Part shown: positions 5,700-51,956 of the stretch, one piece after another
Layout: the number at the start of each line of letters is the position of its first letter
How positions within the stretch are numbered: position 1 is the first letter of the stretch
DNA from: Alphaproteobacteria bacterium
Lineage (GTDB): Bacteria > Pseudomonadota > Alphaproteobacteria > SP197
Length of the DNA stretch: 64,000 nt
NCBI GenBank assembly: GCA_965200215.1
Contig: OZ241369.1
Location: 1,754 to 65,753 of the forward strand
Reading direction: 5' to 3'
The notes under the pieces: generated by a model
What the model saw: the letters and a program-made list of their open reading frames with translations, nothing else
Told to the model about the DNA's origin: nothing
Databases searched by the model: none
Made by a program: the position numbers and the translations under genes

Positions 5700-6125
5700 C
5701 TCCCGGAAATGTGATTCTGCGACGCCCGCCATCATGCCGCAGCGCCCGCCACCATGCAAGCACGCCCGCCAGCCCAGAGCAAACACCCCCCACCGCCCTT
5801 TGGCACCGCCACCCGCACCCCAGGCCCCGACCAAGCGTCCCGCCGTCCGGCCCACCCACGCACCGACCGAGCGTCCCGTCCCCCAGGCACTATCGCCAGC
5901 GTCACGCCCCCCGGCGGGCCGAAAGGCCCGCCCACACACCATCCCGAGCGCCGGCGTCCCGCCGGCAAACGGGCCGCAAGGCCCGTCAACGCACCACCCC
6001 CCACCGCCAGGCACCGCCGCCAGGCACCACCGTCCACCCCCGCTCTCACTGGCTACCGGCCACTGGCTACTGGCCACTAGCCACCAACCACCACCCACTA
6101 ACCACCGCGCCGCCCCCCACGCCAG
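5700..6125 (+). repeat. Dispersed intergenic repeat, about two core units plus a long CCACT/GCCACT tail, + orientation.
   Basis: GGGCCGAAAGGCCCGCC and GGGCCGCAAGGCCCGTCAACGCACC cores, followed by CACTGGCTACCGGCCACTGGCTACTGGCCACTAGCCACC. Confidence 0.8.
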
Positions 6126-9766: not shown

Positions 9767-10609
9767 TCAATCCCGCAACAGCTCGTTGATCGAGGTCTTG
9801 GCCCGGGTCCCCTCGTCCACGCGCTTGATGATCACGGCGCAGGCCAGCGAAGGCTCGCCCGCCCTGCGGGGCGGCAGGGCGCCGGGCACCACCACCGAGA
9901 AGGCCGGCACCCGCCCGCGATGCACCTCGCCCGTGGCCCGGTCCACGATCCTGGTGGAGGCGCCGATGAACACCCCCATCGAGAGGACGGCCCCGCGCTC
10001 CACCACCACCCCTTCCACCACCTCGCTGCGGGCGCCGATGAAGCAGCCGTCCTCCACGATCACCGGCGCCGCCTGCAACGGCTCCAGCACGCCGCCCAGC
10101 CCGGCGCCGCCGGAGATGTGGCAGTTCTCGCCCACCTGGGCGCAGCTTCCCACCGTCGCCCAGCTGTCGATCATGCTGCCGGCCCCGACATGGCCGCCGA
10201 TATTGACGAAACAGGGCATCAGCACCACCCCCGGCGCGATATAGGCGCCGCGCCGCACGATGGCGTGAGGCACGGCGCGAAAGCCGGCGGCCGCGAAGCG
10301 GGTCTCGTCCCAGCCCTCGAATTTGTTGTCCACCTTGTCGAACCAGCCGGCCCGGTTGCCGGGCGCGCCGGGGATCACCCTGGTCGGCGTGAGCCGGAAG
10401 GAGAGCAGCACCGCCTTCTTCAGCCACGGGTTGAGCGTCCAGCCCGTCCCGGCGGGCTCGGCGACGCGCCGCCGCCCGCTGTCGAGCAGTTCCAGGGCCT
10501 CGCCGACCGCCTCGCGGGCAGGGCCTCCGCTCTGCGGGGTCAGGCTTTCGCGCGCTTCCCAGGCATCGTCGATGGCCGCTTCGAGGTCGCGATGAGGATG
10601 GTCGGGCAT
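9767..10609 (-). CDS. dapD: 2,3,4,5-tetrahydropyridine-2,6-dicarboxylate N-succinyltransferase.
   Basis: [17 protein letters not shown] start and left-handed beta-helix hexapeptide repeats; typical alphaproteobacterial DapD length of 280 aa. Confidence 0.88.
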
Positions 10610-10621
10610 GGCTGTCTCGCG

Positions 10622-10835
10622 CGCTGACTCACCGCCCGGCGGATAACACCCCCACCCCCCCCTGGCAACGCCCCCAGGCACCGCCGCCAGCCACACGCCC
10701 CCTGGGAGCGCCGGCGTCCCGCCGGCAACGGGCCGGAGGCCCGTCAACGCACCACCTGCCCACCGCCAGGCACCACCCCCACCCCCCGCTCTCACTAACC
10801 ACTAGCCACCGGCCACTGACCACCGGCCACCCACA
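10622..10835 (+). repeat. Dispersed intergenic repeat copy, + orientation.
   Basis: CCCTGGGAGCGCCGGCGTCCCGCCGGCAACGGGCCGGAGGCCCGTCAACGCACC plus CCGCTCTCACTAACCACTAGCCACCGGCCACTGACCAC. Confidence 0.8.
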
Positions 10836-10893
10836 CGCTTGGCCACCCGCCCCCCATACGCTAAGGTGGCGAACGAGACCGGCGGAAACCGTC

Positions 10894-11262
10894 ATGCCGA
10901 AGATCAACCCCCTCGTCACCCTGTTCCTCGCCATCGCGGCCATCAACGTCGGCCTGTTCGGCTGGCAGCGGGCCGACATGACCGCCCTGGAAACCCGCAT
11001 CGAGGCGCGCTTCGCCGCCCTGGAGATCCGCATCGAGGAACGCTTCAACCGCATCGAAGCCGGACAGACGGAGTTGCGCGAGCGCATGGCCCGCATCGAG
11101 GCCGGACAGACGGAGTTGCGCGAGCGCACGGCCCGCATCGAGGCCGGGCAGTCGGAGCTGCGCGAGCGCATGGCGCGCATCGAAGGCACGGTTGCCGGCG
11201 CCCTGGCCCGCCCCGACCGCCTGGCCCAGGCGCCCACCGAAGAAGCCGAAGCCGCCAACTGA
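10894..11262 (+). CDS. Small N-terminally membrane-anchored coiled-coil protein with tandem RIEAGQxELRER repeats. Paralog of 45751..46107.
   Basis: TM helix (VTLFLAIAAINVGLFGW) followed by three RIEAGQ(T/S)ELRER(M/T)A repeats. About 90% identical to the ORF at 45751. Shares an LRERMARIEG motif with the ORF at 22519. Confidence 0.6.
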   Translation: MPKINPLVTLFLAIAAINVGLFGWQRADMTALETRIEARFAALEIRIEERFNRIEAGQTELRERMARIEAGQTELRERTARIEAGQSELRERMARIEGTVAGALARPDRLAQAPTEEAEAAN

Positions 11263-11264
11263 AA

Positions 11265-11445
11265 GGCGCCCCCCCCAGGACCGACCGAGCGTCACGCCTC
11301 CTGGGAGCGCCGGCGTCCCGCCGGCAAACGGGCCGCAGGCCCGCCAACGCACCGTCCGCCCGCCGCCAGGCACCGCCTCTGCCACCGCCCCATGCCGGCG
11401 CTTCCAGGCCGCGGCTGGCGGCGAGAGTGTCGCCCCGGCGCGACC
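11265..11445 (+). repeat. Dispersed intergenic repeat copy, + orientation.
   Basis: CCTGGGAGCGCCGGCGTCCCGCCGGCAAACGGGCCGCAGGCCCGCCAACGCACC. Confidence 0.75.
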
Positions 11446-11447
11446 CG

Positions 11448-11753
11448 CTACGACGGCAGCAACCTGTCGGCGGCGAGGATGGCGAAGACCACCCCGACCA
11501 GCGCCAGATAGATGCGCGCCTCCTGCCGCGCCATGGCGGCGGTGAGGCGGCCTTCGAGGTGAGCGAGGTCGGCTTTGGTGGCGAAGTCCTTGATGTCCGC
11601 CTTGGTGGCCAGCTCACCATGGCCGGTGACGGCCGCCTGCGCTGTCACCTCGGCGACGGCCTCCGCCTGGCGCCGCTCCATGCCGGCCGCTTCCAGATCG
11701 CGGGTGGCGGCGAGGGTGTCGAAGGCGGCAATGGTCATTGGCGATGGCTCCAT
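11448..11753 (-). CDS. DUF1640-like small coiled-coil protein with a C-terminal TM anchor.
   Basis: AFDTL...AGMERRQAEAVAEV...LATKADIKDFATKADLAHLEGRL then the hydrophobic tail YLALVGVVFAILAA. Paralog of 23275..23568. Confidence 0.6.
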   Translation of the reverse strand: MEPSPMTIAAFDTLAATRDLEAAGMERRQAEAVAEVTAQAAVTGHGELATKADIKDFATKADLAHLEGRLTAAMARQEARIYLALVGVVFAILAADRLLPS

Positions 11754-11759
11754 GCAAGG

Positions 11760-11989
11760 CGGTCACGACAGCTTGCCCCGTGGCAGCAGCGCAAGCAAGC
11801 CGAAAACAAGACCACTTCCCCCGCCACCCACCACCCGGTGCCCCTGGCACACTACCCGCCACACGCCCCCTGGGAGCGCCGGCGTCCCGCCGGCAACGGG
11901 CCGCAAGGCCCGCCAACGCACCACACGCCCGCCGCCAGGCACCACCACCATTCCCCGCTCTCACTAACCACTAGCCACTGGCTACTGGC
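11760..11989 (+). repeat. Dispersed intergenic repeat copy, + orientation.
   Basis: CCCTGGGAGCGCCGGCGTCCCGCCGGCAACGGGCCGCAAGGCCCGCCAACGCACC plus CTCACTAACCACTAGCCACTGGCTACTGGC. Confidence 0.75.
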
Positions 11990-14900
11990 TTACCAGCTCA
12001 TACGCAGTTCCAGGCCCAGTCCGTGGCTCACAGCGGGGTGTTCGCTGCGGGTGGCTTCGATCTTCAGGCCCAGGGCGGTGCCCAGCGCCAGGCGCTGGCC
12101 CAGGCTGTAGCGGCGCTCGTCGCCGCCCAGGGCCAGGCCGCCATAGGGCGTCAGCGTGCCGGCCTCGCCCCAGGCCGCCAGGCCGTAGCCCAACTCGCCC
12201 TCCAGGCGACCGCCGCCCTCGCCGCCGACGCCGTCGCGCGAGGCCATGCCTTCCTCCCACAGCCGCGCAAGCCCGCTGCCGGAAGCGCCCCAGGCCGGCG
12301 ACAGCGACAGCGACAGGCCGCGCCCGTCGCCGCCCGCGTCCATATGCAGGCTGCCGGACGCGCCCCATTCCTCCACATCGCTGCCATGCGCCACCAGGCT
12401 GCGACCCGATACCGACGCCGACAGCCCGGCCGCGGCGTCCGACCAGGCCAGCCCGCCGCCCAGTTCCACGCCCACGCCGGTGGCGCCGTCGCCATCGTCC
12501 CAGCGCAGACCCGCCTCCAGCGACGGCTCCAGCAGACGACCGCCCCGCAGCGCCCAGTTCCAGCTGCCCACCGTCGCCAGCCGCACCCGCCGCGTCGAGA
12601 CGCTCACCCCGGCAATCGCCTCGCCGTTGTCGGCCAGCACATAGCGGGTCGCCTCCGCAGAGGCACGCATCTCCACGGCGGAATCCCCGTCGCCATAGAC
12701 CGGCACCGCACCGCCCAACGCGCCGGCCACAAGCCGCCCGTCGCTCTCCTGCCACTCATAGCGGTCGAAGATGCCCGTGTCGGCGATCCGGACCTCGCCA
12801 TGGCCGTAGCCCAGCGCCGCCCACAGACGCTCGCCGCCGCCACCCGACCAGCCCAGATAGGGATGCACCGCCACCATCCGATGCTCGTGGTCGCCCTCGA
12901 TGGCCCCCGCGTCCTCGTCGCTGCGGTCCGTGTAGTCGATGGCGCTCTCGAAGCGCGAGACCGCCACGCCGCCCATGACGCCGCCGCCCAGGGCCACATC
13001 CGCCCCCACATGGGCGGAAAACAGCTTCCCGGACCACGACAGCAGGCCGTCCTCGCGCGACAGGTCGCGCCAGTCGCCGCCGCCCCACATCACCACCGCC
13101 GAGCCGCCGCCGCCGGAACCGTCCTCGCCCTCGCCGCCCAGGGCCAGCGCGAAGCTCTCGCCGCCCACCAGCTCGCGCCACGAACCCTCGCCGTCCTCCA
13201 GGGCCTCGCCCTTCGAGCGCAGAAAGTCCGCCGCAGCCGCAAGGCCCTGCTCCATCGCGCCGCCCCCCGAACCGCCGCCGCCGGGGGCTCCCAGGCGGGC
13301 GCCGATGGCGTCCAGCGCGCTGCCCCACATGGCACGCGACAACTCCGGCAGAACCGAGCGGTTCACCGCCGCCAGACGCTCGCGAGCCGCAGCCAGCGCC
13401 GGGACCACCTCGATGGTGAACTCCAGCGTCACAGGCTGGCCATCGACGTCGGTCGCCGTCCAGGTGTAGCGCGTGACCGCCATCTCCGCCGTCGGCGCCC
13501 CCGACAACCGATCACCACCCTCGTCGCACTCGAAGCCCTCGCACATGACACCGTCCGGAAGCGCCGGCGACAGCGCGTATATGAACGGCGCGTCGCCCGT
13601 CGCCGCCGGCAGCGTCTCCGGGGCGATCTCCTCGCCCACCGTCCAGGAAAGCGCCTCCGGGAAGTCCACCGCGAAGGACGGCGCCGTGTCCGCGTAGCCC
13701 ACCGCAAACGGCGAGAACGACATCACCCTGTCCGCGCACACCTGCGCGCCCTCGTCTCTCGATCCCTCCACCCGTTCCCCGCGACGCAACAGGAGCAGCG
13801 TCCGGCCCTTTGCCGCCTCGCGCACATCTGGGGTCACCGGCAGGCACAGCCGCAGGCCACCCGGCGGCACGGGAGAAACCGCGATATTCATCACCACCCG
13901 CGCCGCTGCCGGCCCCAGGCTGTGTTCGCTTCCCGCCGCCTCCGCCGCCCGGTCCTCAGGCCACGGCGAGAACGTCAGCGCCAGCTCCGGACCCGGCCCC
14001 ACACCCCTCAGATCGACCTCGATCCTCGTCGTCACCCCGGAGGCCACCGTCAACCCGGGGGCCACCGTCACCTTCACCAGCCGGTCCTCGACGCGGTAGC
14101 TCGTCGTGCCCGCATCGGCGGCCACCGCGATCCGGGTCGCCCCCGCCACCGACGCCGCGACATCCAGGCTCGCGGATACCCCTCCGTAATCGCCGCCCGA
14201 TGCCCGGTGCATCACCGACAGCGCCGCCGCGTAGCCGTCCGCCCCCACCGACGACCCCACCGTCACCGTCACCGCCTGCGCCCGGTTCCAATCCGCCATC
14301 GTGAAGGTCAGCGACGAAGGCGCGGCCCGCACATCGCCCGCCGCCGCGACCGTCACCGTCACCGGCCCCGTGGGCTGCGAGTTCAGCGCCACCGTGTAGC
14401 TCGCAGCTCGCGACCCCGACGCCACCTCCACCACGCTGGCGGTCGTGCCGGCGGCGAGGAACAGCAACCCCTTCTCGTCGTCGTCCACGATGGTCAGCTT
14501 CGCGTCGTCGTCGTCCACGTCCACGATCTCGTTGTTCATCGTGGCCTGGGCGTTCACCGCCGTCCCGGAGACCGTCACCGTCTTGTTATCCGCGTCCACG
14601 GCGTTGTTCACCGCCGTCACCGTCACCAGGCCGGTGCTGGTGGTCTCCCCCGCCGCGATGGTCAGCGTCGCCGCCGCGCTCAGCGTGAAGTCCCCCGCCA
14701 CCGCAGGGGCGACCGGCGCCGCCGTCACCGTCACCACCGTCTCCGCAACCGACGGGTGCTCCTTCACCGCCGTCACCGTCGCCACACCGCCATCCTCCGA
14801 GATCGAGGAAGGCGCCAGCGCCAGCGTCACCTCCGGCGGCTCGTCGTCGGTCGTGGTCCCGTTCACGTCCACGGGGTCGAGGCTGTCGTAGTCGGCATCG

Positions 14901-22518: not shown

Positions 22519-22800
22519 TCACGCCGCCGCCGTCTCCGACTCCCGCGCCTGCCGAGACTCCCGCCGCAGGAACCCCTCGAACATCCCTTCGATCCGGGCC
22601 ATCCGCTCCCGCAACTTCGCCATCTCGCCGCGCACGGCTTCGAACTGCTGGCTCGTATCCTCCCGCAGCTCCTTGATCTCGCCGCGCAGTTCCCTCATCT
22701 CGCCGCGGCGCTCGCGGTTCAAGACCAGCGCCAGGCCAGCCAATGCCACGCCCACCGTGGCAATGCCGATCGGCTCCGGGATCATGCCCGCTCCTCCCAA
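22519..22800 (-). CDS. Small membrane-anchored coiled-coil protein (N-terminal TM, LRERMARIEG motif).
   Basis: MIPEPIGIATVGVALAGLALVL TM helix followed by the heptad-rich ELRGEIKELRED...KLRERMARIEGMFEG. Alternative start at 22785. Confidence 0.5.
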   Translation of the reverse strand: MGGAGMIPEPIGIATVGVALAGLALVLNRERRGEMRELRGEIKELREDTSQQFEAVRGEMAKLRERMARIEGMFEGFLRRESRQARESETAAA

Positions 22801-23274
22801 ACCAGGATGCGCAACCTACACCCCCGGCGCGCGCATTCCCAGGCGATAACGGCGCCGGAACCGGCATTCCGCCCCACCGGCTACCGCCCGCCCCCATCAC
22901 CGCCTCACCCATGCGCGGGGGGGGGGGGGGGGGTACAACGTCGGCCCGGCAGCGAACGGCGAAGCAAGAAAGCCCATAATCCCCTCACTCGGCAGCGCAA
23001 CGGCGGCTGCAACCCCTCATAGCCCACCCCCCGGCGATGTCAAGCCCGCCGTCAAGGTCAAGCACAGCATCAACCACCCGCCGCAAACACAAGCACCATA
23101 GCACAAAACCCCACCCCCAACCACCACCGCCCGGCAAGCCGCCAGGCCCGCCCACACACCGCTCCCCAAGCGCCACCCACCCACCGCCAGGCACCACCCC
23201 CAGCCACCCGCTCCCACGAACCACTAGCCGCTGGCTACCGGCCACGGGCCACTAGCCACCGGCCAACCCACCGC
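22801..23274 (+). repeat. Intergenic region with a poly-G18 tract (22916-22933) and a dispersed repeat copy (23040-23270), + orientation.
   Basis: 18 consecutive G at 22916-22933. CCGCCAGGCACCACC...CCACGAACCACTAGCCGCTGGCTACCGGCCAC tail. Confidence 0.75.
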
Positions 23275-23568
23275 CTACAGCAACAGCTTGATAATGGCGA
23301 CGGTGAGAGCAGCGTTGGCGAGGGCGAAGGCGAGGAAAGCCAGATAGATGCGCGCTTCGAGGCGAGCGAGGCCGGCAGCGAGGTCGCCCCTGGTGGCGAA
23401 GTCCTTGAGGTCGGCCTTGGTGGCCAGCTCGCTATGACCGGCGCCGGCAGCGCGGGCAGCGGTCTCGACGACAGCTTCCGCCTGGCGCTCGTCGAAGCCA
23501 GCCTCCCGAAGCGCCTTGGCGGCCGCATAGGTATCGAAGGCAGCAAGCGCCACGGCGATGACTCCCAA
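23275..23568 (-). CDS. DUF1640-like small coiled-coil protein with a C-terminal TM anchor.
   Basis: AFDTYAAAKALREAGFDERQAEAVVE...LATKADLKDFATRGDL...ARIYLAFLAFALANAALTVAIIKLLL. Paralog of 11448..11753. Confidence 0.6.
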   Translation of the reverse strand: MGVIAVALAAFDTYAAAKALREAGFDERQAEAVVETAARAAGAGHSELATKADLKDFATRGDLAAGLARLEARIYLAFLAFALANAALTVAIIKLLL

Positions 23569-23815
23569 ACGGCAGGGACGATACCAGGCAGGCTAGACGA
23601 AGACGCCGCTAGGCGCAAGGTGCGCCACCGCCCCCGGCGGGCCGCAAGGCCCGCCCACGCACCACACGCCCGCCGTCAGGCACCACCACCATTCCCCGCT
23701 CCCACTGGCTACTGGCTACTAACCACTAACCACCCCCACCACCCCCCAGCCTCCCCACCAGCGCGGCAAGCCAGGGGGTGAGTTCCGGCGCGATATGGCC
23801 GTCGTCGCGCCGGGG
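23569..23815 (+). repeat. Dispersed repeat copy plus a ~70-bp duplicate of the 3' end of the HAD nucleotidase gene (23740-23815).
   Basis: GGCGGGCCGCAAGGCCCGCCCACGCACC core plus CCACTGGCTACTGGCTACTAACCACTAACCAC. Then CCCCAGCCTCCCCACCAGCGCGGCAAGCCAGGGGGTGAGTTCCGGCGCGATATGGCCGTCGTCGCGCCGGG, which matches 25023-25105 apart from a 10-12 bp indel. Confidence 0.75.
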
Positions 23816-23833
23816 CAAGCACCGTGACTCCAA

Positions 23834-24196
23834 TCAATGACTATCCAGATACCGGCGTATGTAACTCGCTCCCAGACCGACAATGGCGCCGCTCAAGACG
23901 GAGTTCTTTATGTCCTGCAATTCATCCGGGTTGAGCCAGTGCCATTTGTTTGGCGTCAGGAGGTGATATCCCAAGGTGGACACGGCCCCGGCGACGACGA
24001 TAAAAACCATCACCAGGAGAATCCACGTGCACAAGGCAAGGATTGTCCGGGACGTCTGATCCCGATAGTGTTCGCTCCGTCTTTTTTGCAGTTCTTGTTC
24101 TTCGGATTCCGCAAGGGAGTCCCCATGGGAGGAAGGAGCCGGCTGAGGCGGAACACGCTGCCGGCTTTCCGGAGGCTTATTCCCGCTCTTTTTCAT
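23834..24196 (-). CDS. Small (120 aa) membrane protein; candidate toxin partner (PanT-like) of the upstream Panacea-domain gene.
   Basis: ATG at 24196 (MKKSGNKPPES...) overlaps the upstream gene stop by 4 bp (ATGA). Hydrophobic segment ILALCTWILLVMVFIVVAGAVSTLGY. Low GC (~52%). The role is inferred from gene context only. Confidence 0.45.
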   Translation of the reverse strand: MKKSGNKPPESRQRVPPQPAPSSHGDSLAESEEQELQKRRSEHYRDQTSRTILALCTWILLVMVFIVVAGAVSTLGYHLLTPNKWHWLNPDELQDIKNSVLSGAIVGLGASYIRRYLDSH

Positions 24197-24690
24197 TCGC
24201 TTGCAGCCGCAAGTTCGGCAAAATGCTCCTCGATGAGCTCGTCGGGAATGATGGAGTTGCAGCCCGTTTGATGCCAGATCTGATGCCAGGGCGTCCCGCG
24301 CGCATGCGTGAGCTGCGACAGCTGGACACCCGAAAATTCGCAATAGACGTTGAACACCTGTCGGATCAGGTCTTCTTCCAGGGGATCGAAATCGCTATCC
24401 GGAAAGTCCTGGACGACGTTGACGGGTTTGCGTCCATAACGCTTCAGCCCGTGATATACATCCGGAATGACCGGACCGTATTTCCAGGCTTCGACGGGCT
24501 GCGCCGATAATGGGCGATGGTATAACCCGAGCATCCATCCGTGGCACAGATAGGTGAGCTTGATCAGTTGCAGAGGATCGCGGGGCTTGCCCCCATTGAT
24601 GCCCAGTCGGATCAGAGCGTTTGCGACGGCTCGAGAATCGTGCTTCCGAGAGTTGTGTTTCATGGCATAAAGGTCCGATGTTGGGAACAT
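24193..24690 (-). CDS. Panacea-domain (DUF4065, SocA/PanA-like) protein; putative antitoxin.
   Basis: LQLIKLTYLCHGWMLGLYHRPLSAQPVEAWKYGPVIPDVYHGLKRYG matches the DUF4065/Panacea consensus (KLqKLlYfaqgw...AWkyGPVvpevY). Low-GC island. Confidence 0.65.
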   Translation of the reverse strand: MFPTSDLYAMKHNSRKHDSRAVANALIRLGINGGKPRDPLQLIKLTYLCHGWMLGLYHRPLSAQPVEAWKYGPVIPDVYHGLKRYGRKPVNVVQDFPDSDFDPLEEDLIRQVFNVYCEFSGVQLSQLTHARGTPWHQIWHQTGCNSIIPDELIEEHFAELAAASE

Positions 24691-24834
24691 AAGCCGGGAA
24701 AGAACAAACGTTCCTTTAGGGAAAAGCGCTTTATGCTGGCATGATCATGGGCGAGCTGCCATTATGTTTCCTGGCTCCCCACAGACAGAGGCCGTCAGGA
24801 TAGGCCCCACCGCCGCGCTATGTCAAACTCTTCA

Positions 24835-34255: not shown

Positions 34256-35989
34256 TCACCCCGCCTTGACAAAGCGAATGTTAAAACCAGCCGGCGGCGC
34301 CGGCGCGTCGGGAAAGACGCGGCGCAGGAACTCCTCGCTGTACGTGTTCGGTATGAAGGGCCTGTACTCCTCCCAGCGGCGGACCGGCGCGTCGTTCTCC
34401 TCGCGGCGCAGGATGCGGAGATTGCCGAACGCCTTCTCCACCGCATAGCCGGGAACGACCAGCTCCGGGAGTTCGGTCACGATGTGGCTGGCCGAGACCC
34501 GGAGCGTTTCCAGCTGGTGCAGGTCGTTGGCGACCCCGGTCTGCGAATCGTAGAACGGGATCTTGCGGTGCAGATGGTAGTAGCCGGGGGTGGCGAGATA
34601 GGCGCGGTCGATCTGCCACACCGCTTCGACCCCCGGAGCGGTGGCGAGATAGCGATATGCCGCGAACGTGGCGTCCTGGTCGCGGAGAAAGCGGATGGGC
34701 AGCGGGTTGCCCGCGCAGCACGCTTCGTCCTGTTCCGGCAGCGCGTTCAGAATCCCGACCAGCGACACCGCCGCGAACAGGGCACCGGCCAGCCCATAGG
34801 CCAGCGCCGGCTTGCCGGCTCGCTCGGCGAGCCGCGCCACCAGGTCGGCGCCGGCCAGCAGCCAGAGGGGGACCACCGCGAAGACGAAGCGATATTCCTT
34901 GTGCGTCTGGGTGGAATGGATGAGTAGGATCAGGGCGATGGAGAGGAGCAGGAACCCGTAGCGGCGCGGTGCGGAGGCCGCCGCCGCCGCGCACAACGCG
35001 CTCAGGCCCCCGCCGGTGAACAGCAGCCACACCAGGTACTGATACGCCGGCTTCGTTTCATAGGCGGTCCGTTCCAGCCCCAGGTTGAAACGGAGGTTGT
35101 TGACATAGGACTGGAACAGCCCGGCGTCCCACGTCACCGCGTCGAACGCGCCGACCGCCAGCAGCACCGCCGCCGCGGCGAACGCCGCCTGCACCCTCGC
35201 GGCCTTGCCGGCCCGCAGGAACCACAGGCCCAGCAGCGCCAGCGCCAGGGGCGCATACTGGATCCGCACCGCCGCCGCCAGCACCGCCAGCAAGGCCACC
35301 GCCCAGGCGCCGCCCGCCCGGGCCGTTCCCGATCCGTCCGGCGAGGCGCGCACGCACAGCGCCAGCAGCGCCGTCAGCAGGGCGGTCGCGACCAGCTCGG
35401 TCAGCGGCTTGTGCGCGTAGCCGGCCAGCTCGTACCAGAACGCACCGGCCACCAGCGCCACCCGTGCCGACATTTCCCCCAGATGCCGCCGCGCGAAGAA
35501 ATACATCCCGGCCGGAATGGCCAGCGAGAGGGCGCAGAACGCCAGTTCGACCCCGCCGACGTACCAGGCCGGCTGCCCTAGCCCCACGGCGTCGAACAGG
35601 ACCAGAATCCCGGCGATCGCCACCGGCAGCAGCAGCGAGCGCGCGCCGTAGACCTGCTCCCAATACATGACGCCGTTGCCGAAGGCGAGCAGGTGCCCGA
35701 CCTCCAGATACTGCATGTACTCGTCGAAATGCAGCCGGGAATCGCCGTAGAGCGCGATACCCGCCCGCACCGCGAAGGCCAGCGCCAGCACCGGCCAGAA
35801 CCACCTCCACACCGGCTCGTCACCCGCCCGCAGATGCAACAACCCATCCACCGCCCCACCCAGGCGGGCAAGCGCGCGTCCGGGCAATCCCCGGCCCGAC
35901 GCCGCCTCGCGCCCCTCCGCCACCCCGCGCGTCTGCGAGGGCAGGGGCCGCGCCCCCCGCCGCCCAGCCTTTCTCTCCCGCCTAGCCAT
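34256..35989 (-). CDS. GT22-like (PIG-B/ALG9-type) integral-membrane mannosyltransferase, paralog 1 of 4.
   Basis: 577 aa, polytopic. HFDEYMQYLEVGH is a variant of the GT22 HPDExFQxLE motif. C-terminal region about 50% identical to paralogs 2-4. Confidence 0.72.
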   Translation of the reverse strand: MARRERKAGRRGARPLPSQTRGVAEGREAASGRGLPGRALARLGGAVDGLLHLRAGDEPVWRWFWPVLALAFAVRAGIALYGDSRLHFDEYMQYLEVGHLLAFGNGVMYWEQVYGARSLLLPVAIAGILVLFDAVGLGQPAWYVGGVELAFCALSLAIPAGMYFFARRHLGEMSARVALVAGAFWYELAGYAHKPLTELVATALLTALLALCVRASPDGSGTARAGGAWAVALLAVLAAAVRIQYAPLALALLGLWFLRAGKAARVQAAFAAAAVLLAVGAFDAVTWDAGLFQSYVNNLRFNLGLERTAYETKPAYQYLVWLLFTGGGLSALCAAAAASAPRRYGFLLLSIALILLIHSTQTHKEYRFVFAVVPLWLLAGADLVARLAERAGKPALAYGLAGALFAAVSLVGILNALPEQDEACCAGNPLPIRFLRDQDATFAAYRYLATAPGVEAVWQIDRAYLATPGYYHLHRKIPFYDSQTGVANDLHQLETLRVSASHIVTELPELVVPGYAVEKAFGNLRILRREENDAPVRRWEEYRPFIPNTYSEEFLRRVFPDAPAPPAGFNIRFVKAG

Positions 35990-36174
35990 AAAAGCGCCTA
36001 ACCCCCACCCTCACGCACCGTCATCAGCCACCCGGCGCCCCCCTGGCACCGACCGAGCGTCACGCCCCCTGGGAGCGCCGGCGTCCCGCCGGCAACGGGC
36101 CGAAGGCCCGCCAGGCACCACCCCCACCCCCCGCTCTCACTAACCACTAGCCACTGGCCACTATCCACGAACCA
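35990..36174 (+). repeat. Dispersed intergenic repeat copy, + orientation.
   Basis: CCCTGGGAGCGCCGGCGTCCCGCCGGCAACGGGCCGAAGGCCCGCCAGGCACC plus CCGCTCTCACTAACCACTAGCCACTGGCCACTATCC. Confidence 0.8.
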
Positions 36175-37881
36175 CTATTCCCCAACCAACCCCGCCCCCA
36201 CAAAGCGAATGCCGAAATTCGCCGGCGGCGGCGGCGCCTGCGCGTACAGCCGGGGCAGGTATCCCTCGCCGAACAGGTTGGTAACGGTCGGGTTGAAGCC
36301 CCGCCATCCGCGCACCGGCGCCTCGTTCTCCTCGCGGCCCAGGATGCGGACGCGGCCGAACTCCCACTCCACGGCGTAGCCGGCAACGGCGAGGTCCGGG
36401 CGCACGGTCACCAGATGGCTGACCGACCCCCGCAGCGTTTCCAGGTCGGCATGAAGCTCGTTGGCGAGGCCGGCCTGGCGATCGTAGAACGGCACCTTGC
36501 GGTGCAGGTAATAGTAGCCGGGCGTCTCCAGATAGTCGTTGTCGAGATCCCACACCGCCTTCACCCCGGGCGCGGCGGCCAGCCAGCGATAGGCGGCAAA
36601 CTCCGCATCCTGGCCGTGCAGGAATCTCACGGGGTGTCTCACGCCCACGCTGAACCTCTCCGTGAGCGCCTCGTCCCAGCGCGGCAACTGGTTCAGAATG
36701 CCGGCCACCGACGCCGCCGCGAACAGGACGCCCGCCAGCCCGTAGATCGGCGCTCGTTTGCCCGTGCGCTCGGCAAGACGGGCGACGAGGCCGGCCCCGA
36801 CCAGCAGCCACAGCGGAGCGAGGACGAACAGGTAGCGGTATTCCTTGTGCTCCTCGATGGAATGGGGCACCAGGATCAGGGCGATGAGGACGAGCAGAAA
36901 CCCGTAGCGGCGCAGGTCGAGCAGCGCCGCCGCCGCGCACAGCGCGCTCAGCCCGCCCCCGAGGAACAGGAGCCACACCAGATACTGGCCCCTCGGCCAG
37001 ACGTGCTCGACCCTGTGCCGGTCGATCGCGAGGTTGAATTCCAGATAGGTGCGGTAGGAGTGGAACAGCCCGCCGTCCCACGTCACGGCGTCGAACAGTC
37101 CGACCGCGAAGACGAACACGCTCGCCGCCGCCATGGCGTGCAGCCTGGCGGCCGTGCCGGCGCGCAGGAACCACAGGCCCAGCAGCGCCAGCGCCACCGG
37201 CGCATACTGGATCCGCACCGCCACCGTCAGCACCGCCAGGAAGGCGACCGTCCAGGCCGCCGCCGCCCCGTCCTTGCGCGGCGGGCGGACGCACAGCGCC
37301 AGCAGCGCCATCGCCAGGGCGGCGCCGACGAACTCGGTCATCGGCTTGTGGGCGAAACCGGCCAGCTCGTACCAGAACGCCCCCGCCACCAGCGCCACCC
37401 GCGCCGCCGCCTCGTCGAAATGCCGCCGCGCGAAGAAATACATCCCCGCCGGCACCGCCAGCGAGAGGGCGCAGAACGCCAGCTTGACCCCGCCGACATA
37501 CCAGGCCGGCTGCCCCAGCCCCACGGCGTCGAACAGGACCAGGATGCCGCCGATCAGGCCGGGGACGAGCCACGAGCGGGCGCCGTAGAAGAACTCCCAA
37601 TAGACGACGCCGTTGCCGAAGGCCAGCCGGTGCCCCTGCTCCAGATACTGCATGATCTCGTCGGGGTGTAGGACGAAATCGCCGTGGAGCGCGATAGCCG
37701 CCCGCGCCGCGAAGGCCAGCGCCAGCACCGGCCACAACCATCGCCACACCGGCCCGTCGCCCGCCCGCAAATGCAACAACCCATCCACCACCCCGCGCAG
37801 CCGCCCCAACCCACGCGGCCGCGAGGGCGCGGCGCGCTGCCTCCGCCGCGCCTTCCTCGCCTTTCTCTCCCTCTCAGCCAT
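36175..37881 (-). CDS. GT22-like mannosyltransferase, paralog 2 of 4.
   Basis: MAERERKARKARRRQRAAPS..., the HPDEIMQYLEQGH motif, 568 aa. N-terminal half nearly identical to paralog 4; C-terminal half nearly identical to paralog 3. Confidence 0.75.
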   Translation of the reverse strand: MAERERKARKARRRQRAAPSRPRGLGRLRGVVDGLLHLRAGDGPVWRWLWPVLALAFAARAAIALHGDFVLHPDEIMQYLEQGHRLAFGNGVVYWEFFYGARSWLVPGLIGGILVLFDAVGLGQPAWYVGGVKLAFCALSLAVPAGMYFFARRHFDEAAARVALVAGAFWYELAGFAHKPMTEFVGAALAMALLALCVRPPRKDGAAAAWTVAFLAVLTVAVRIQYAPVALALLGLWFLRAGTAARLHAMAAASVFVFAVGLFDAVTWDGGLFHSYRTYLEFNLAIDRHRVEHVWPRGQYLVWLLFLGGGLSALCAAAALLDLRRYGFLLVLIALILVPHSIEEHKEYRYLFVLAPLWLLVGAGLVARLAERTGKRAPIYGLAGVLFAAASVAGILNQLPRWDEALTERFSVGVRHPVRFLHGQDAEFAAYRWLAAAPGVKAVWDLDNDYLETPGYYYLHRKVPFYDRQAGLANELHADLETLRGSVSHLVTVRPDLAVAGYAVEWEFGRVRILGREENEAPVRGWRGFNPTVTNLFGEGYLPRLYAQAPPPPANFGIRFVGAGLVGE

Positions 37882-38056
37882 GCCCGCCCCCCGCCGTCAG
37901 GCACCACACCCCACCACCCGCGCCCCCCTGGGAGCGCCGGCGTCCCGCCGGCAAACGGGCCGAAGGCCCGTCAACGCACCACACGCTCACCGCCAGGCAC
38001 CACCCCCACCACCCGCTCCCACCGGCCACCGACCACTGGCTACTGGCCACTAACCA
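37882..38056 (+). repeat. Dispersed intergenic repeat copy, + orientation.
   Basis: CCCTGGGAGCGCCGGCGTCCCGCCGGCAAACGGGCCGAAGGCCCGTCAACGCACC plus CCGCTCCCACCGGCCACCGACCACTGGCTACTGGCCACTAACCACTATCC. Confidence 0.8.
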
Positions 38057-39823
38057 CTATCCACCCCCCACCCCCGCCTCCACAAAGCGAATCCCAAAAT
38101 TCCCCGCCGGCACAGGCGCTTCCGGATACAGCCGGCGCATGATCCCCTCCCCATAGGTGTGGGTGATGGTCGGCGTAAAGTCCCGCCATCCGCGCACCGC
38201 CGCCCCGTCCCCCTCGCGGCCCAGGATGCGGACCCGGCCGAACTCCCACTCCACGGCGTAGCCGGCAACGGCCAGGTCCGGGCGCACGGTCACCAGATGG
38301 CTGACCGACCCCCGCAGCGTCTCCGGGTCGCTATGCAGGTGGTTGGCGGCGCCCGCCGCCCGGTCGTAGAACGGCACTTTGCGGTGCAGGTAATAGTAGC
38401 CGGGCGTGTCCAGATAGTCGTGATCGAGGTCCCATACCGCTTGCACCCCGGGCGTGTCGGCCAGCCAGCGATAGGCGGCGAACGCCGGGTCCTGGCCGTA
38501 GAGGAACCGCACGGGGTGCCTTATGTCCGCGCTGATCCCCTCCGTGAGCGCCTCGTCCCAGCGCGGCAACAGGTTCAGGGCGCCGGCCACCGACACCGCC
38601 GCGAACAGGGTGCCGGCGGTCCCGTACACCAGCGCGGCCCTGCCTCCGCCCCCGCGCGCATCGGGGGCAGGGGAGGGGCGTCGCCCGGCCAGCCACGCCA
38701 CCGCGCCGGCCCCGACCAGCAGCCACAGCGGCACCGCCGCGAACACGAAGCGGTATTCCTTGTGCTCCTCGATGGAATGGGGCACGAGGATCAGGGCGAT
38801 GAGGACGAGCAGGAACCCGTAGCGGCGCAGGTCGAGCAGCGCCGCCGCCGCGCACAGCGCGCTCAGCCCGCCCCCGAGGAACAGGAGCCACACCAGATAC
38901 TGGCCCCTCGGCCAGATCCGCACGACCGCATCGCGGTCGATCGCGAGATTGAATTCCAGATAGGTGCGATAGGAATGAAACAGCCCGCCGTCCCACGTCA
39001 CGGCGTCGAACACGCCCACCGCGAAGAAGAACGCGCTCGCCGCCGCCATGGCGTGTAGCCTGGCGGCCGTGCCGGCCCGCAGGAACCACAGGCCCAGCAG
39101 CGCCAGCGCCACCGGCGCATACTGGATCCGCACCGCCACCGTCAGCACCGCCAGGAAGGCGACCAGCCACGCCGCTGCCGCCCCGTCGCCGCCCGCCGCC
39201 GCCCCACCGCCGCGCGGCGCCCGCATGAACAGCGCCAGCAGCGCCATCGCCAGGGCGGCGCCGACGAACTCGGTCATCGGCTTGTGGGCGAAGCCGGTCA
39301 GCTCGTACCAGAACGCCCCCGCCACCAGCGCCACCCGCGCCGCCGCCTCGTCGAAATGCCGCCGCGCGAAGAAATACATCCCCGCCGGCACCGCCAGCGA
39401 AAGGGCGCAGAACGCCAGCTTGACCCCGCCGACATACCAAGCCGGCTGCCCCAGCCCCACGGCGTCGAACAGGACCAGGATGCCGCCGATCAGGCCGGGG
39501 ACGAGCCACGAGCGGGCACCGTAGAAGAACTCCCAATAGACGACGCCGTTGCCGAAGGCCAGCCGGTGCCCCTGCTCCAGATACTGCATGATCTCGTCGG
39601 GGTGCAGGACGAAATCGCCGTGGAGCGCGATAGCCGCCCGCGCCGCGAAGGCCAGCGCCAGCACCGGCCACAACCATCGCCACACCGGCTCGTCACCCGC
39701 CCCCAAATGCAACAACCCATCCACCACCCCACCCAGGCGGGCCGCCCAGCGCCCGCGCGGCTGCGAGGGCGCAGCGCGCTGCCTCCGCCGCGCCCTCCTC
39801 GCCTTTCTCTCCCTCTCAGCCAT
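38057..39823 (-). CDS. GT22-like mannosyltransferase, paralog 3 of 4.
   Basis: ATG at 39823 (MAERERKARRARRRQRAAPSQ...), HPDEIMQYLEQGH, 588 aa. Contains a short insertion (RAPRGGGAAAGGDGAAAAW) relative to paralogs 2 and 4. Confidence 0.75.
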   Translation of the reverse strand: MAERERKARRARRRQRAAPSQPRGRWAARLGGVVDGLLHLGAGDEPVWRWLWPVLALAFAARAAIALHGDFVLHPDEIMQYLEQGHRLAFGNGVVYWEFFYGARSWLVPGLIGGILVLFDAVGLGQPAWYVGGVKLAFCALSLAVPAGMYFFARRHFDEAAARVALVAGAFWYELTGFAHKPMTEFVGAALAMALLALFMRAPRGGGAAAGGDGAAAAWLVAFLAVLTVAVRIQYAPVALALLGLWFLRAGTAARLHAMAAASAFFFAVGVFDAVTWDGGLFHSYRTYLEFNLAIDRDAVVRIWPRGQYLVWLLFLGGGLSALCAAAALLDLRRYGFLLVLIALILVPHSIEEHKEYRFVFAAVPLWLLVGAGAVAWLAGRRPSPAPDARGGGGRAALVYGTAGTLFAAVSVAGALNLLPRWDEALTEGISADIRHPVRFLYGQDPAFAAYRWLADTPGVQAVWDLDHDYLDTPGYYYLHRKVPFYDRAAGAANHLHSDPETLRGSVSHLVTVRPDLAVAGYAVEWEFGRVRILGREGDGAAVRGWRDFTPTITHTYGEGIMRRLYPEAPVPAGNFGIRFVEAGVGGG

Positions 39824-40000
39824 ACCCGCACCCCGCCCCCAGCCAGCCGTCCAGCCCACCCACGCACCGTTCCCCGAGCGCCGGCGCCCCGCCGGCAAAC
39901 GGGCCGAAGGCCCGTCAACGCACCACACGCTCACCGCCAGGCACCACCCCCACCACCCGCTCCCACCGGCCACCGACCACTGGCTACTGGCCACTAACCA
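39824..40000 (+). repeat. Dispersed intergenic repeat copy, + orientation.
   Basis: Near-identical to the 37882-38056 copy. Confidence 0.8.
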
Positions 40001-41692
40001 CTAACCACCCCCCACCCCCGCCCCCACAAAGCGAATCCCAAAATTCCCCGCCGGCACAGGCGCTTCCGGATACAGCCGGCGCATCAGCCCCTCCCCATAG
40101 GTGTGGGTGATGGTCGGCGTAAAGTCCCGCCATCCGCGCACCGCCGCCCCGTCCCCCTCGCGGCCCAGGATGCGGACGCCGCCGAACTCCCACTCCACCG
40201 CCCAGCCGGCAACGGCAAGGTCCGGGTCCTCGGTCACCAGGTGGCTGACCGAACCCAAGAGCGCCTCCAGGTCGCTATGCAGGTGGTTGGCGAAGCCGGT
40301 CACCCGGTCGTAGAACGGCACCTTGCGGTGCAGGTAATAGTAGCCGGGAAGGTCGTGATAGGGGCGGTCGACCTGCCACACCGCCAGGACCCCGGGCGCG
40401 TCGGCGAGGTAGCGGTAGGCGGCGAACACCGGGTCCTGCTCGCGGACGAACCGGATGGGGGTGGAGGCGTTCGCGCCCAGCCCTTCATCCTCGCCCGGCA
40501 GGACGTTCAGGATGCCGCCCACAGAGATCGCCGCGAACAGAACGCCGGCCGCCCCGAACACCAGGGCCCGCCGCCCTCCGGCGCGGTCGGCCAGCCGCGC
40601 CACGACGCCGGCGCCGGCGAGCAGCCACAGCGGCACCACCGCGAAGACGAAGCGGTATTCCTTATGCGGCTCCACGGTGTGAAGCAGCAGGATCACGGCG
40701 ATCAGCGCGAGCACCAACCCGTAGCGGCGCAGGTCGAACAGCGCCATCGCCACGCACAGCGCGCTCAACCCCGCCCCGGTCCACAGCAGCCACGGCAGAT
40801 ACTGATGGGTTGGCCAGGCCGCCCTGTCGATCGCCAGATTGAATGCGAGATTGGCGCGATAGGAGTGGAACAGCCCGCCGTCCCACGTCACGGCGTCGAA
40901 CACGCCCACCGCGAAGAAGAACACCGCCGCGGCGATGGCGGCGTGCATCTTCGCGGCCTTGCCGGCGCGCAGGAACCACAGGCCCAGCAACGCCAGCGCC
41001 ACGGGCGCGTATTGTATTCGCACTGCCGCCGTCAGCACCGCCAGCAGGGCGACCGTCCAGGCCGCCGCCGCCCCGTCCTTGCGCGGCGGGCGGACGCACA
41101 GCGCCAGCAGCGCCATCGCCAGGGCAGCGCCGACGAACTCGGTCATCGGCTTGTGGGCGAAGCCGGCCAGCTCGTACCAGAACGCCCCGGCCACCAGCGC
41201 CACCCGCGCCGCCGCTTCGTCGAAATGCCGCCGCGCGAAGAAGTACATCCCCGCCGGAACCGCCAGCGAGAGGGCGCAGAACGCCAGCTTGACCCCGCCG
41301 ACATACCAGGCCGGCTGCCCCAGCCCCACGGCGTCGAACAGGACCAGGATGCCGCCGATCAGGCCGGGGACGAGCCACGAGCGGGCACCGTAGAAGAACT
41401 CCCAATAGACGACGCCGTTGCCGAAGGCCAGCCGGTGCCCCTGCTCCAGATACTGCATGATCTCGTCGGGGTGCAGGACGAAATCGCCGTGGAGCGCGAT
41501 AGCCGCCCGCGCCGCGAAGGCCAGCGCCAGCACCGGCCACAACCATCGCCACACCGGCTCGTCACCCGCCCCCAAATGCAACAACCCATCCACCACCCCA
41601 CCCAGGCGGGCCGCCCAGCGCCCGCGCGGCTGCGAGGGCGCAGCGCGCTGCCTCCGCCGCGCCTTCCTCGCCCTTCTCTCCCTCTCAGCCAT
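40001..41692 (-). CDS. GT22-like mannosyltransferase, paralog 4 of 4.
   Basis: ATG at 41692 (MAERERRARKARRRQRAAPSQ...), HPDEIMQYLEQGH, 563 aa. Has a distinct central and C-terminal segment (QYLPWLLWTGAGLSALCVAMALFDL...). Confidence 0.75.
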   Translation of the reverse strand: MAERERRARKARRRQRAAPSQPRGRWAARLGGVVDGLLHLGAGDEPVWRWLWPVLALAFAARAAIALHGDFVLHPDEIMQYLEQGHRLAFGNGVVYWEFFYGARSWLVPGLIGGILVLFDAVGLGQPAWYVGGVKLAFCALSLAVPAGMYFFARRHFDEAAARVALVAGAFWYELAGFAHKPMTEFVGAALAMALLALCVRPPRKDGAAAAWTVALLAVLTAAVRIQYAPVALALLGLWFLRAGKAAKMHAAIAAAVFFFAVGVFDAVTWDGGLFHSYRANLAFNLAIDRAAWPTHQYLPWLLWTGAGLSALCVAMALFDLRRYGLVLALIAVILLLHTVEPHKEYRFVFAVVPLWLLAGAGVVARLADRAGGRRALVFGAAGVLFAAISVGGILNVLPGEDEGLGANASTPIRFVREQDPVFAAYRYLADAPGVLAVWQVDRPYHDLPGYYYLHRKVPFYDRVTGFANHLHSDLEALLGSVSHLVTEDPDLAVAGWAVEWEFGGVRILGREGDGAAVRGWRDFTPTITHTYGEGLMRRLYPEAPVPAGNFGIRFVGAGVGGG

Positions 41693-45331: not shown

Positions 45332-45359
45332 CGCCTCCCGGGAGCCGACCCGATCGCAT

Positions 45360-45750: not shown

Positions 45751-46107
45751 ATGCCGAAGATCAACCCCTTCATCACCCTGTTCTTCGCCATCGCAGCCAT
45801 GAACGTCGTCTTGTTCGGCTGGCAGCGTGCCGACATGACCGCCCTGGAAGCGCGCTTTGCCGCCCTGGAAACTCGCATCGAGGAACGCTTCAACCGCATC
45901 GAAGCCGGACAGGTGGAGCTGCGCGAGCGCATGGTCCGCATCGAAGCCGGACAGACGGAGTTGCGCCAGCGCACGGCCCGCATCGAGGCCGGTCAGGCGG
46001 AGTTGCGCGAGCGCATGGCGCGCATCGAAGGCACGGTCGCCGGCGCCCTGGCCCGCCCCGACCGCCTCGCCCAGGCGCCCACCGAAGAAGCCGAAGCCGC
46101 CAACTGA
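45751..46107 (+). CDS. Small N-terminally membrane-anchored coiled-coil protein with RIEAGQxELR repeats (paralog of 10894..11262).
   Basis: MPKINPFITLFFAIAAMNVVLFGWQRADMTALE...RIEAGQVELRERMVRIEAGQTELRQRTARIEAGQAELRERMARIEGTVAGALARPDRLAQAPTEEAEAAN. Also shares 40 bp of upstream sequence with the 10894 copy. Confidence 0.6.
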   Translation: MPKINPFITLFFAIAAMNVVLFGWQRADMTALEARFAALETRIEERFNRIEAGQVELRERMVRIEAGQTELRQRTARIEAGQAELRERMARIEGTVAGALARPDRLAQAPTEEAEAAN

Positions 46108-46398: not shown

Positions 46399-46399
46399 C

Positions 46400-47251
46400 T
46401 AGGCTCAGGACCCATAAACGGTCTTGAGTATTGTTGTGAGAAGTGGTTCAAGCTCTTCCAGATATAGAGGAGGCTATCATGTCTGACCACCACTTCTGGT
46501 TATCGGATGCCCAGTTCGCCCGCATCCAGCCGCTGTTGCCCAACAAGGTGCGCGGTGTGCCCCGGGTCGATGACCGGCGCGTCATCTCGGGCATCATCCA
46601 CGTCATTCGCAACGGGCTGAGGTGGCGTGACGCGCCGCCTGAATACGGTCCTCACAAGACCCTCTACAACCGCTTCGTGCGCTGGAGCAGGGCTGGCGTA
46701 TTCGGACGCATCTTCGAGGCTCTGGCTGCCGACAGCCGGGCGTCGGGGACGGTGATGATCGACGCCACCTACCTGAAGGCTCACCGGACTGCGGCCAGCC
46801 TGCTCAAAAAGGGGCTTTTCCGCGATGTATCGGGCGTAGCCGAGGCGGCTTGAACTCGAAGCTGCACGCGGTTTGCGACGGCGATGGCAAGCCCTTGATC
46901 CTGCTGCTGACCGAGGGGCAGGCCAGCGACTACCGGGGTGCCGAGGCCATCTTGCCGGCAGTGCCGGACGCCGATGTCCTGATCGCCGACAAGGGCTATG
47001 ACAGCGACCGTTTCCGCCAAGCCCTGGCCGAACGGCGCATCGAGACATGCATCCCCGGACGGGCGAACCGCAAGAGGCCGGTAGAATATGACCCAAAGCT
47101 ATACCAGCGGCGAAACCTCATCGAACGGATGTTCGGAAGGCTCAAGGACTGGAGGCGCATCGCCACACGATACGACCGATGCGCGCACACCTTCTTTAGC
47201 GCTATCTGCATCGCCGCCACCGTCATCTTCTGGTTATGAGTCCTGAGCCTA
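46400..47251 (+). mobile_element. IS5-family (IS427-group) insertion sequence, about 850 bp. Terminal inverted repeats GGCTCAGGAC(C/T)CATAA. Transposase in two ORFs (orfA 46479..46853, orfB 46850..47239) joined by a probable -1 frameshift at CAAAAAG (46805-46811). Inserted at a CTAG site with a TA duplication.
   Basis: Left end ...CTAGGCTCAGGACCCATAAACGG. Right end CCGTTTATGAGTCCTGAGCCTAG (rc matches the left end). orfA MSDHHFWLSDAQFARIQPLLP... has the HTH. orfB ...GGLNSKLHAVCDGDGKPL...ADKGYDS has the DDE motifs. Lower GC than the flanks. Confidence 0.85.
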
Positions 47252-47381
47252 GCCAAAGCGCCGCCGCCCGCCGCCAGGCACCGCCACATCCTCGACCACC
47301 GCCGCCCCGCCCCGTGGCGGCCAGGGCCGGTTCGTGCTAGGCAAGCGGCTGCTCCCCGCAACGCCAGGACCGCCGCCCGCC

Positions 47382-51860: not shown

Positions 51861-51956
51861 CACCGCCCACAACGCCAACCGATCCACCACCAACCTGCTA
51901 CGATAAACGGGCACCAAAACCCGCTGCGGCACCCCGCCGCGCGAAAGGAGTCGGCG

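Follow-up and report, generated by a model that had tools for sequence, protein, structure and literature searches.

We analysed a 64,000-nucleotide stretch of an alphaproteobacterial contig (OZ241369.1), referred to here as the window, which has a G+C content of 71.4% and carries five genes for small membrane proteins belonging to two families, named A and B. Family A proteins (A1, A2 and A3) have a transmembrane (TM) helix at the N-terminus followed by a coiled coil, and family B proteins (B1 and B2) resemble DUF1640 (CCDC90-like) proteins and have the TM segment at the C-terminus. A1 and B1 are convergent, with a gap of 185 bp, and B2 and A3 are encoded on the same strand, 474 bp apart (Table 1). 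An initial annotation of this DNA had reported three genes of the first kind and two of the second, lying as neighbours in two places, and all five open reading frames (ORFs) and both pairs are indeed present. The second pair is unlike the first, being encoded on one strand, with an A gene of another subfamily (A′) and a B protein only 56% identical to B1.

Table 1. Features of the window discussed in the text, with positions counted from its first nucleotide (TM, transmembrane; REP, repetitive extragenic palindrome).
Feature	Position	Strand	Remarks
A1, 122-aa family-A protein	10894..11262	+	N-terminal TM residues 7-23, coiled coil, ERMARIEGTVAGAL box
In-frame 33-bp (11-aa) tandem repeat, 2 copies, inside A1	10982..11046	+	Tandem Repeats Finder
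In-frame 42-bp (14-aa, RIEAGQxELRERxA) tandem repeat, 3.2 copies, inside A1	11049..11183	+	Tandem Repeats Finder
About 60 bp upstream of A1, common to A2; putative private promoter and 5′ UTR	10832..10893	+	
A2, 118-aa paralogue of A1, without a B partner	45751..46107	+	
Same 42-bp repeat, 3.3 copies, inside A2	45894..46030	+	Tandem Repeats Finder
A3, 88-aa member of the A′ subfamily	22519..22785	-	N-terminal TM, coiled coil, LRERMARIEG box
B1, 96-aa DUF1640/CCDC90-like protein	11448..11738	-	Two-helix head, LATKAD/FATKAD beta-layer nonads, stalk, C-terminal TM
B2, 97-aa DUF1640-like protein	23275..23568	-	C-terminal TM
REP-like intergenic repeat, left edge of A1/B1 module	10682..10786	+	
REP-like intergenic repeat between A1 and B1	11282..11386	+	
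REP-like intergenic repeat, right edge of A1/B1 module	11851..11955	+	
Giant secreted repeat protein, ~3383 aa	11990..22141	-	Calx-beta and LapA domains, signal peptide ending AFA/N (cleavage after AFA)
IS5-family insertion sequence (DUF4096 plus DDE ORFs)	46399..47252	+	19-bp terminal inverted repeats, CTAG at each flank

A1 and A2 are close paralogues, with 88.5% identity over 122 columns including one 4-aa gap (tblastn; 92% with the gap excluded), consistent with the figure of about 90% given in the initial annotation. Approximately 60 bp 5′ of the two start codons also match, as it had noted, and do so on top of a generic intergenic repeat. A consensus promoter scan upstream of A1 found nothing, and Rfam and promoter/terminator scans of positions 10500–12100 gave nothing usable. 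The 14-aa tandem repeat that had been noticed within A1 and A2 corresponds to a 42-bp unit, and the repeat-number variation it had suggested is seen among homologues, whose lengths differ through in-frame repeats. A3, which contains 2.1 copies of a 21-bp repeat (Tandem Repeats Finder), shares an identical LRERMARIEG decamer with A1 and A2, again as described, though it is a distant relative (matching the A-family hidden Markov model, HMM, only at E 4e-5) from a multi-copy subfamily of its own.

The ORF of A3 runs to 22800, with the likely start at M6 (22785), eight bases after GGGAGGAG, and the resulting 88-aa product is 100% identical to P0358, on a 2.76-Mb contig. The ORF of B1 is open to 11753; a GGAG sequence nine bases before the second methionine, at 11738, and agreement with homologues make the latter the likely start. 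Across the A and B genes, G+C is 0.78–0.92 at third codon positions (GC3) versus about 0.48 at second positions (GC2), and pairwise ratios of nonsynonymous to synonymous substitution (dN/dS) are 0.13–0.70, indicating that the ORFs are genuine genes and subject to purifying selection. No record was returned by exact-product look-ups of A1, B1, P0013 and P0030.

The A1/B1 pair forms part of a module of about 1.25 kb, in which the genes alternate with REP-like intergenic repeats (REP-A-REP-B-REP) and which is present in two to three tandem copies in sister strains. Positions 10669–11989 align over their full length, at 75–80% identity, with three consecutive units of locus L001 and two units of L054. 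The repeat has a core, GAGCGCCGGCGTCCCGCCGGCAA, found at 28 sites in the window between 4434 and 57168 (e.g. 10706, 11305, 11874, 22233 and 46180), downstream of which follow a GGGCC-GNRA-GGCCC hairpin and a tail of CCACTAG/CCACCGG heptamers. All 28 copies lie on the forward strand, whatever the orientation of the neighbouring genes, and the same co-orientation was observed in sister loci (14/14 in L001, 13/13 in L054, 16/16 in L057 and 3/3 in another). One copy separates nearly all adjacent A and B genes, and in this lineage each gene of either family is bracketed by co-oriented copies. The earlier description of the pairs as embedded in repeat-rich DNA is therefore true but not specific, since with 28 cores in 64 kb it applies to nearly every intergenic region here. 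The number of modules differs between strains, as shown by the interval between a dCTP-deaminase gene and an autotransporter gene, which holds one A gene in L057 and five in L001, three of these within full modules of convergent B and A genes. Tandem copying of the REP-bounded module best accounts for the recurrence of the pairs in the lineage of the window.

The adjacency of the two families was investigated by scanning family HMMs for A and B over every fetched locus, with genes within 700 bp of each other counted as adjacent. The lineage of the window comprised the window itself, L001, L003, L054, L055 and L057. Loci of other lineages comprised 31 with B genes, from Alpha- and Gammaproteobacteria, Arenicellales, Bryobacterales and two viral contigs, and L053, L060 and L061 with A genes. 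Within the lineage of the window, 11 of the 22 A genes adjoin a B gene and 11 of the 13 B genes adjoin an A gene. In the other lineages, none of 41 B genes adjoins an A gene (11 adjoin another B) and none of 17 A genes adjoins a B gene (16 adjoin another A). The adjacency of the two families described in the initial annotation hence stands for this one lineage and was met nowhere else among the approximately 60 loci. When ORFs within 2.5 kb of B were clustered for 29 other-lineage loci, no other recurrent neighbour emerged, only antisense ORF artefacts.

For both families, arrays of a single kind (A-A-A or B-B-B) are commoner than mixtures of A and B. L060 has an A array of six genes and L061/L062 one of eight, with a single gene orientation and spacers of about 60–110 bp. 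The juxtaposition of B2 and A3 is conserved in L063, a contig of a sister strain. In the repeated modules B is steady at 87–92 aa and A ranges over 83–114 aa (96 and 122 aa in the window), and this lack of co-variation in length argues against a length-matched heteromeric coiled coil. Expansion has taken place independently in the A and B families, among whose paralogues the main difference is the number of in-frame repeats.

Direct repeats at gene boundaries would be a natural substrate for unequal crossing-over. Recombination between copies of the intergenic repeat could duplicate either gene by itself or both together and would in this way yield the A-A-A, B-B-B and alternating (B A)n arrays observed, and slippage or unequal exchange within the 21-, 33- and 42-bp repeats could give rise to the in-frame insertions and deletions. 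We favour, with moderate confidence, the reading that positions 10894–11753 are one copy of a duplicating unit of about 1.25 kb, and that the A/B pairs are by-products of co-amplification in regions of envelope genes, with no conserved two-gene system.

A and B are two unrelated families of small, single-pass membrane coiled-coil proteins, which would most likely serve as inner-membrane stalks or scaffolds. Family A is covered by no model above threshold in Pfam, NCBIfam, PHROG or PADLOC, and A1, A2 and A3 gave only sub-threshold coiled-coil matches to curated families. XhlA is the commonest Pfam match among 42 A members, being found in 6, and in scans of A1 and A2 it covers the coiled-coil part. 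A total of 175 relatives were found by search, with a common plan consisting of a conserved N-terminal segment (MPKINPF..LFLAIAA.N.GLFGW.RADM), a variable middle block built from 7-, 11- and 14-residue repeats, and a conserved C-terminal box, ERMAR(I/L)EGTVAGAL.RP, followed by a short acidic tail. Homologues of A are 79–182 aa long. The A′ proteins, which form a sister subfamily, are 70–146 aa long and multi-copy within the same genome, and on a single 2.76-Mb contig A and A′ together make up at least 12 distinct clusters at 90% identity. The AlphaFold2 (AF2) model of A1 consists of a single uninterrupted helix from residue 6 to 105 (predicted local distance difference test, pLDDT, ~97) with a disordered tail. 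A is an undescribed family in which, by this model, an N-terminal TM helix runs on into one helix of about 100 residues.

An exhaustive profile search with A, covering 1.8 billion representatives, gave 614 matches, mostly long coiled-coil proteins aligned to the repeats only. Judging from the matched ranges listed, no more than a few dozen clusters share both the TM segment and the C-terminal box, and many of these end in LRERMAKLEGLLEGLREAI. No relative was found in the JGI metagenome and IMG/VR collections scanned with the A alignment. Across other lineages the A and B proteins are conserved at 37–60% identity, with the TM segment and C-terminal box retained. The closest relatives of the window are metagenome-assembled genomes of uncultured Alphaproteobacteria (OZ251464.1 and others) and ENA metagenome contigs, and these bacteria are probably sponge-associated, as several sample and bin names resemble those of marine-sponge metagenomes. 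Counts of lysine plus arginine in the TM flanks (0.75 versus 2.23 for A; 0.14 versus 3.93 for A′) favour an N-out, C-in topology, i.e. a cytoplasmic coiled coil, for both subfamilies.

The assignment of B to DUF1640, proposed in the initial annotation, holds at the level of the family. PF07798 (CCDC90-like, formerly DUF1640) is matched at E ≤ 0.001 by 38 of 60 aligned B relatives (best E 6e-10), but B1 (E 9.7e-5, 22.7 bits) and B2 (E 5.4e-5, 23.6 bits) themselves fall below the cut-off of 33.5 bits. Positions 4–72 of the B family profile align to residues 20–94 of 6H9M, the head of CCDC90B (E 5.1e-5), and the neck also matches the beta-layer coiled-coil structures 7O92 (E 9e-6) and 5APZ. B1 has two copies of the beta-layer motif nine residues apart, i.e. 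with nonad spacing (LATKADIKD-FATKADLAH), and B2 has LATKAD and FATRGD; a motif of the form [aliphatic]-A-T-K-[polar]-[DE] is characteristic of DUF1640 membrane proteins of prokaryotes and organelles (Hartmann et al., PMC4786415). The C-terminal hydrophobic segment spans residues 74–90 of B1 and 77–93 of B2, with a mean Kyte-Doolittle value of 2.27 in each. In the AF2 monomer of B1, two helices (H8-17 and H22-38) make up the head, besides a short helix and a long one that comprises stalk and TM segment; a Foldseek search of this model against the PDB returned only noise and is uninformative, the monomer being too small and helical.

The PF07798 family includes human MCUR1 and CCDC90B, yeast Put6 and Put7, and many uncharacterised bacterial proteins. 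B1 and B2 share with it the FDT...AG(M/F)..RQAEA head, a beta-layer motif, [aliphatic]-A-T-K-x-[DE], where the stalk begins, and a coiled-coil stalk with a C-terminal TM segment. They differ in their length of about 90 aa, compared with a model of 175 positions, and in occurring many times within a genome, as paralogues that contain different numbers of ATKAD nonads and LEGRLT heptads, with homologues ranging from 68 to 120 aa. B represents a new, strongly expanded bacterial branch of DUF1640. In eukaryotes, the paralogous membrane proteins MCUR1/CCDC90B and Put6/Put7 face the matrix and assemble with one another into hetero-oligomeric scaffold complexes. Like these mitochondrial relatives, B probably acts as a membrane scaffold of the DUF1640 type, and we infer that it would do so as a trimer facing the cytoplasm.

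The closest studied analogue of the phenomenon as a whole is provided by the Bdr proteins of Borrelia, which are small and inner-membrane-associated, with a C-terminal hydrophobic anchor and a central coiled coil made up of tandem repeats (of the 11-aa KID type in the copy examined). They constitute a multi-copy paralogous family with no known function, often encoded beside surface-protein (surface-lipoprotein) loci, with their own promoter. The likeness is confined to architecture and genome behaviour: hhalign gave a probability of 0.07% for B against Bdr and detected no sequence relationship, and KID (PF02524) has no match in B1 or B2, whereas Bdr scores 70.6 bits. Bdr proteins also differ in their KID repeats and in being carried on the cp32 prophage plasmids of spirochaetes.

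Across lineages, the conserved neighbour of A arrays is not B but one family of autotransporters. Arrays of A adjoin genes with a PF03797 autotransporter beta-domain in three lineages: in L001, L054 and L057 an A gene lies 330–490 bp upstream of the autotransporter on the same strand, in L060 the autotransporter follows 169 bp downstream of the six A genes, and in L061/L062 the array and the autotransporter are divergent. These autotransporters are homologous over their full length, with 37–53% identity between lineages, and the other flanking genes differ. L061 and L062 (1–5700) have an identical eight-A array and differ on the autotransporter side, where one strain carries, besides a 755-aa autotransporter, a DDE transposase and an ORF of 616 aa and the other has intact autotransporters of 1418 and 1637 aa; apparently, an insertion sequence (IS) has disrupted or rearranged the surface-protein genes.

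In the window, the neighbours of the A and B genes are dapD, the giant repeat protein gene, glycosyltransferase genes and fumC. The giant gene is flanked by both A/B pairs, with A3 377 bp upstream of it, and encodes units of about 336–348 bp (112–116 aa) with Calx-beta and LapA matches. Its C-terminus (...GLGLELRMSW) looks like the end of an outer-membrane barrel; Pfam, NCBIfam, BLASTP, phmmer against the PDB and a local HMM of the neighbouring autotransporters detected no autotransporter barrel, and with all of these tests negative we do not call it an autotransporter. A C17 tract is found on the reverse strand at 22917–22933, some 130 nt before the start of A3 and downstream of a promoter-like site (TTGACA-N16-TATGAG). 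The matching tract of L063 (~5835–5849) is C15, on a contig with 2.6x coverage. Such a tract could switch A3 and the giant surface gene in a phase-variable manner; equally, the difference could be a homopolymer error, given that coverage. A2 adjoins a tandem array of Alg9-like and PMT-like glycosyltransferase genes. The recurring setting of the A and B genes consists of cell-envelope and surface-protein loci, which may reflect a functional link, and A probably has a role in cell-envelope or surface-protein biology.

Small coiled-coil partners of secreted proteins have a precedent in SadB, a trimeric coiled-coil lipoprotein of the inner membrane whose gene lies upstream of that for the trimeric autotransporter SadA. 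Its structure is listed as PDB 4C47 (PMC4786415). A resembles SadB as a small membrane-anchored coiled coil just upstream of a gene for a type V secreted protein, and could in the same manner be an accessory factor of one autotransporter family, its inner-membrane stalks aiding secretion, tethering or display. The association of A arrays with homologous PF03797 genes amid otherwise different flanks in three lineages speaks for this, as does the position of A3 upstream of the giant secreted protein. We nevertheless regard it as rather unlikely, since A1, A2 and the tandem genes of L053 lack such a neighbour, six to eight paralogues per array would be unusual for a helper, the flank charges of the TM segment lean towards a cytoplasmic coiled coil, and the adjacency may have been inherited as the synteny of a variable island, in which IS elements are present. 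A differs from SadB, moreover, in having a TM helix instead of a lipobox (no lipobox cysteine is present at its N-terminus, and there is no lipoprotein signal), in arrays of up to eight genes, and in its neighbours, which are classical PF03797 autotransporters and not trimeric ones. It is improbable, in our estimation, that the A arrays are a dedicated set of partners for this family, which would add a new layer of accessory proteins to type V secretion or surface display, with a stalk length tuned by gain and loss of in-frame repeats. The initial annotation had instead suggested that the oppositely anchored coiled coils could form a heteromeric scaffold; if A and B were dedicated to each other in this way, antiparallel pairing would place both TM segments in one membrane. 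The frequent adjacency within the lineage of the window, the recurrence of the convergent arrangement and the lysine plus arginine counts, by which both coiled coils may face the cytoplasm, are all in its favour. Against it stands the lack of any adjacency among the loci of other lineages, and within the lineage the pair is explained as a DNA-level duplication unit; A-only and B-only arrays are common, the stalk lengths are mismatched, and the known partners of DUF1640 proteins are other DUF1640 paralogues, so that we consider such a scaffold quite unlikely.

An origin of the genes as remnants of phage lysis or holin-accessory functions, in which A would correspond to an Rz-type i-spanin or to XhlA and B to a DUF1640 protein of phages, is suggested by the match of B to the phage family phrog_17872 (E 2.5e-11), by weak matches of A2 to Rz-like spanin PHROGs (E 0.003–0.03), by two relatives of B in IMG/VR contigs and by literature placing some DUF1640 genes in prophage regions. 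A does share with i-spanins and XhlA an N-terminal TM segment followed by a coiled coil of about 100 residues, with weak PHROG and Pfam matches, but the scores (XhlA included) are below threshold, A forms tandem arrays of paralogues, and it is absent from the IMG/VR viral collection. No phage genes surround any of the copies, and no o-spanin, holin or endolysin context is present; inspection revealed no lipobox ORF overlapping or adjoining A1 that could encode a partner lipoprotein. Searches by tblastn of sequenced phages (with A1, A3 and B1) and of plasmids (with A1 and B1) yielded no member of either family, with a low-complexity filter that may hide weak coiled-coil matches. A phage origin is accordingly very improbable. 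We give almost no credence to the ORFs being artefacts of repetitive, G+C-rich DNA: many spurious long ORFs do overlap the region on both strands, and the exact products of A1 and B1 are not on record as called genes, but the codon-position pattern, dN/dS below 1, Shine-Dalgarno sequences and conservation in other lineages all contradict it.

Several observations weigh against the preferred reading, that of a co-amplified module without a conserved two-gene system. The census rests on fetched loci and not on whole genomes, the adjacency of A and B is strong within the lineage of the window, and a lineage-specific A-B interaction may exist there. Arrays of A also occur in lineages that do not have this intergenic repeat, so that the repeat would aid amplification without being required for it. 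As regards the envelope-gene setting, the window has no gene of the autotransporter family adjoining A arrays elsewhere, and the giant protein gave the negative barrel results described above. Furthermore, the topology of A is ambiguous, as the net charge of subfamily A points in the opposite direction to the lysine plus arginine counts.

The IS beside A2, with two ORFs of the IS4/5 type, sits in the CCACTAG-type tail of an intergenic repeat. Its excision in silico restores an ordinary spacer of about 430 bp between A2 and fumC, in which no B-like remnant was found. It is a simple, clean insertion by which nothing was displaced, and the earlier suggestion that the IS at 46400 had displaced a third A/B pair can be discarded.

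Further features of the window were noted. On the reverse strand at 34256–45508, six paralogous membrane glycosyltransferase genes, four of them Alg9-like GT22 (PF03901, E 1e-23 to 1e-28) and two weakly PMT_2-like, are arranged in tandem with a period of about 1.9 kb, and a REP-like repeat separates each gene from the next, making this another repeat-bounded amplification. Close to B2, a patch of low G+C (55–56% versus 71%) extends from 23800 to 24800 and is probably a horizontally acquired toxin-antitoxin-like module. A SocA/Panacea-domain antitoxin-like gene (24193–24690, reverse strand, E 2.7e-16) lies in it, overlapped by a 169-aa ORF with a hydrophobic segment (23834–24343, reverse strand), and the Panacea gene is also present in L063. 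At 51933–52844, a 102-bp tandem repeat with about 7–9 copies is contained within overlapping long ORFs.

Both the gene families and their ladders of repeat lengths are unusual and previously undescribed, and no new mechanism is demonstrated by them. A and A′ constitute an uncharacterised family outside all Pfam models, of an unusually clean design (TM helix, helix built of repeats, conserved box) and with an extreme expansion of paralogues (up to eight in tandem). With B, an expanded bacterial branch is added to DUF1640, whose mitochondrial members MCUR1 and CCDC90B are medically relevant scaffolds. The ladders of 7-, 11- and 14-residue and ATKAD-nonad insertions offer a natural series of variants for coiled-coil biology. 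More generally, recurrent adjacency within one genome can be an artefact of duplication, and a test across lineages is needed before a two-component system is inferred from it. The loci described here suggest a way in which intergenic repeats of strictly uniform orientation can promote the tandem amplification of genes.

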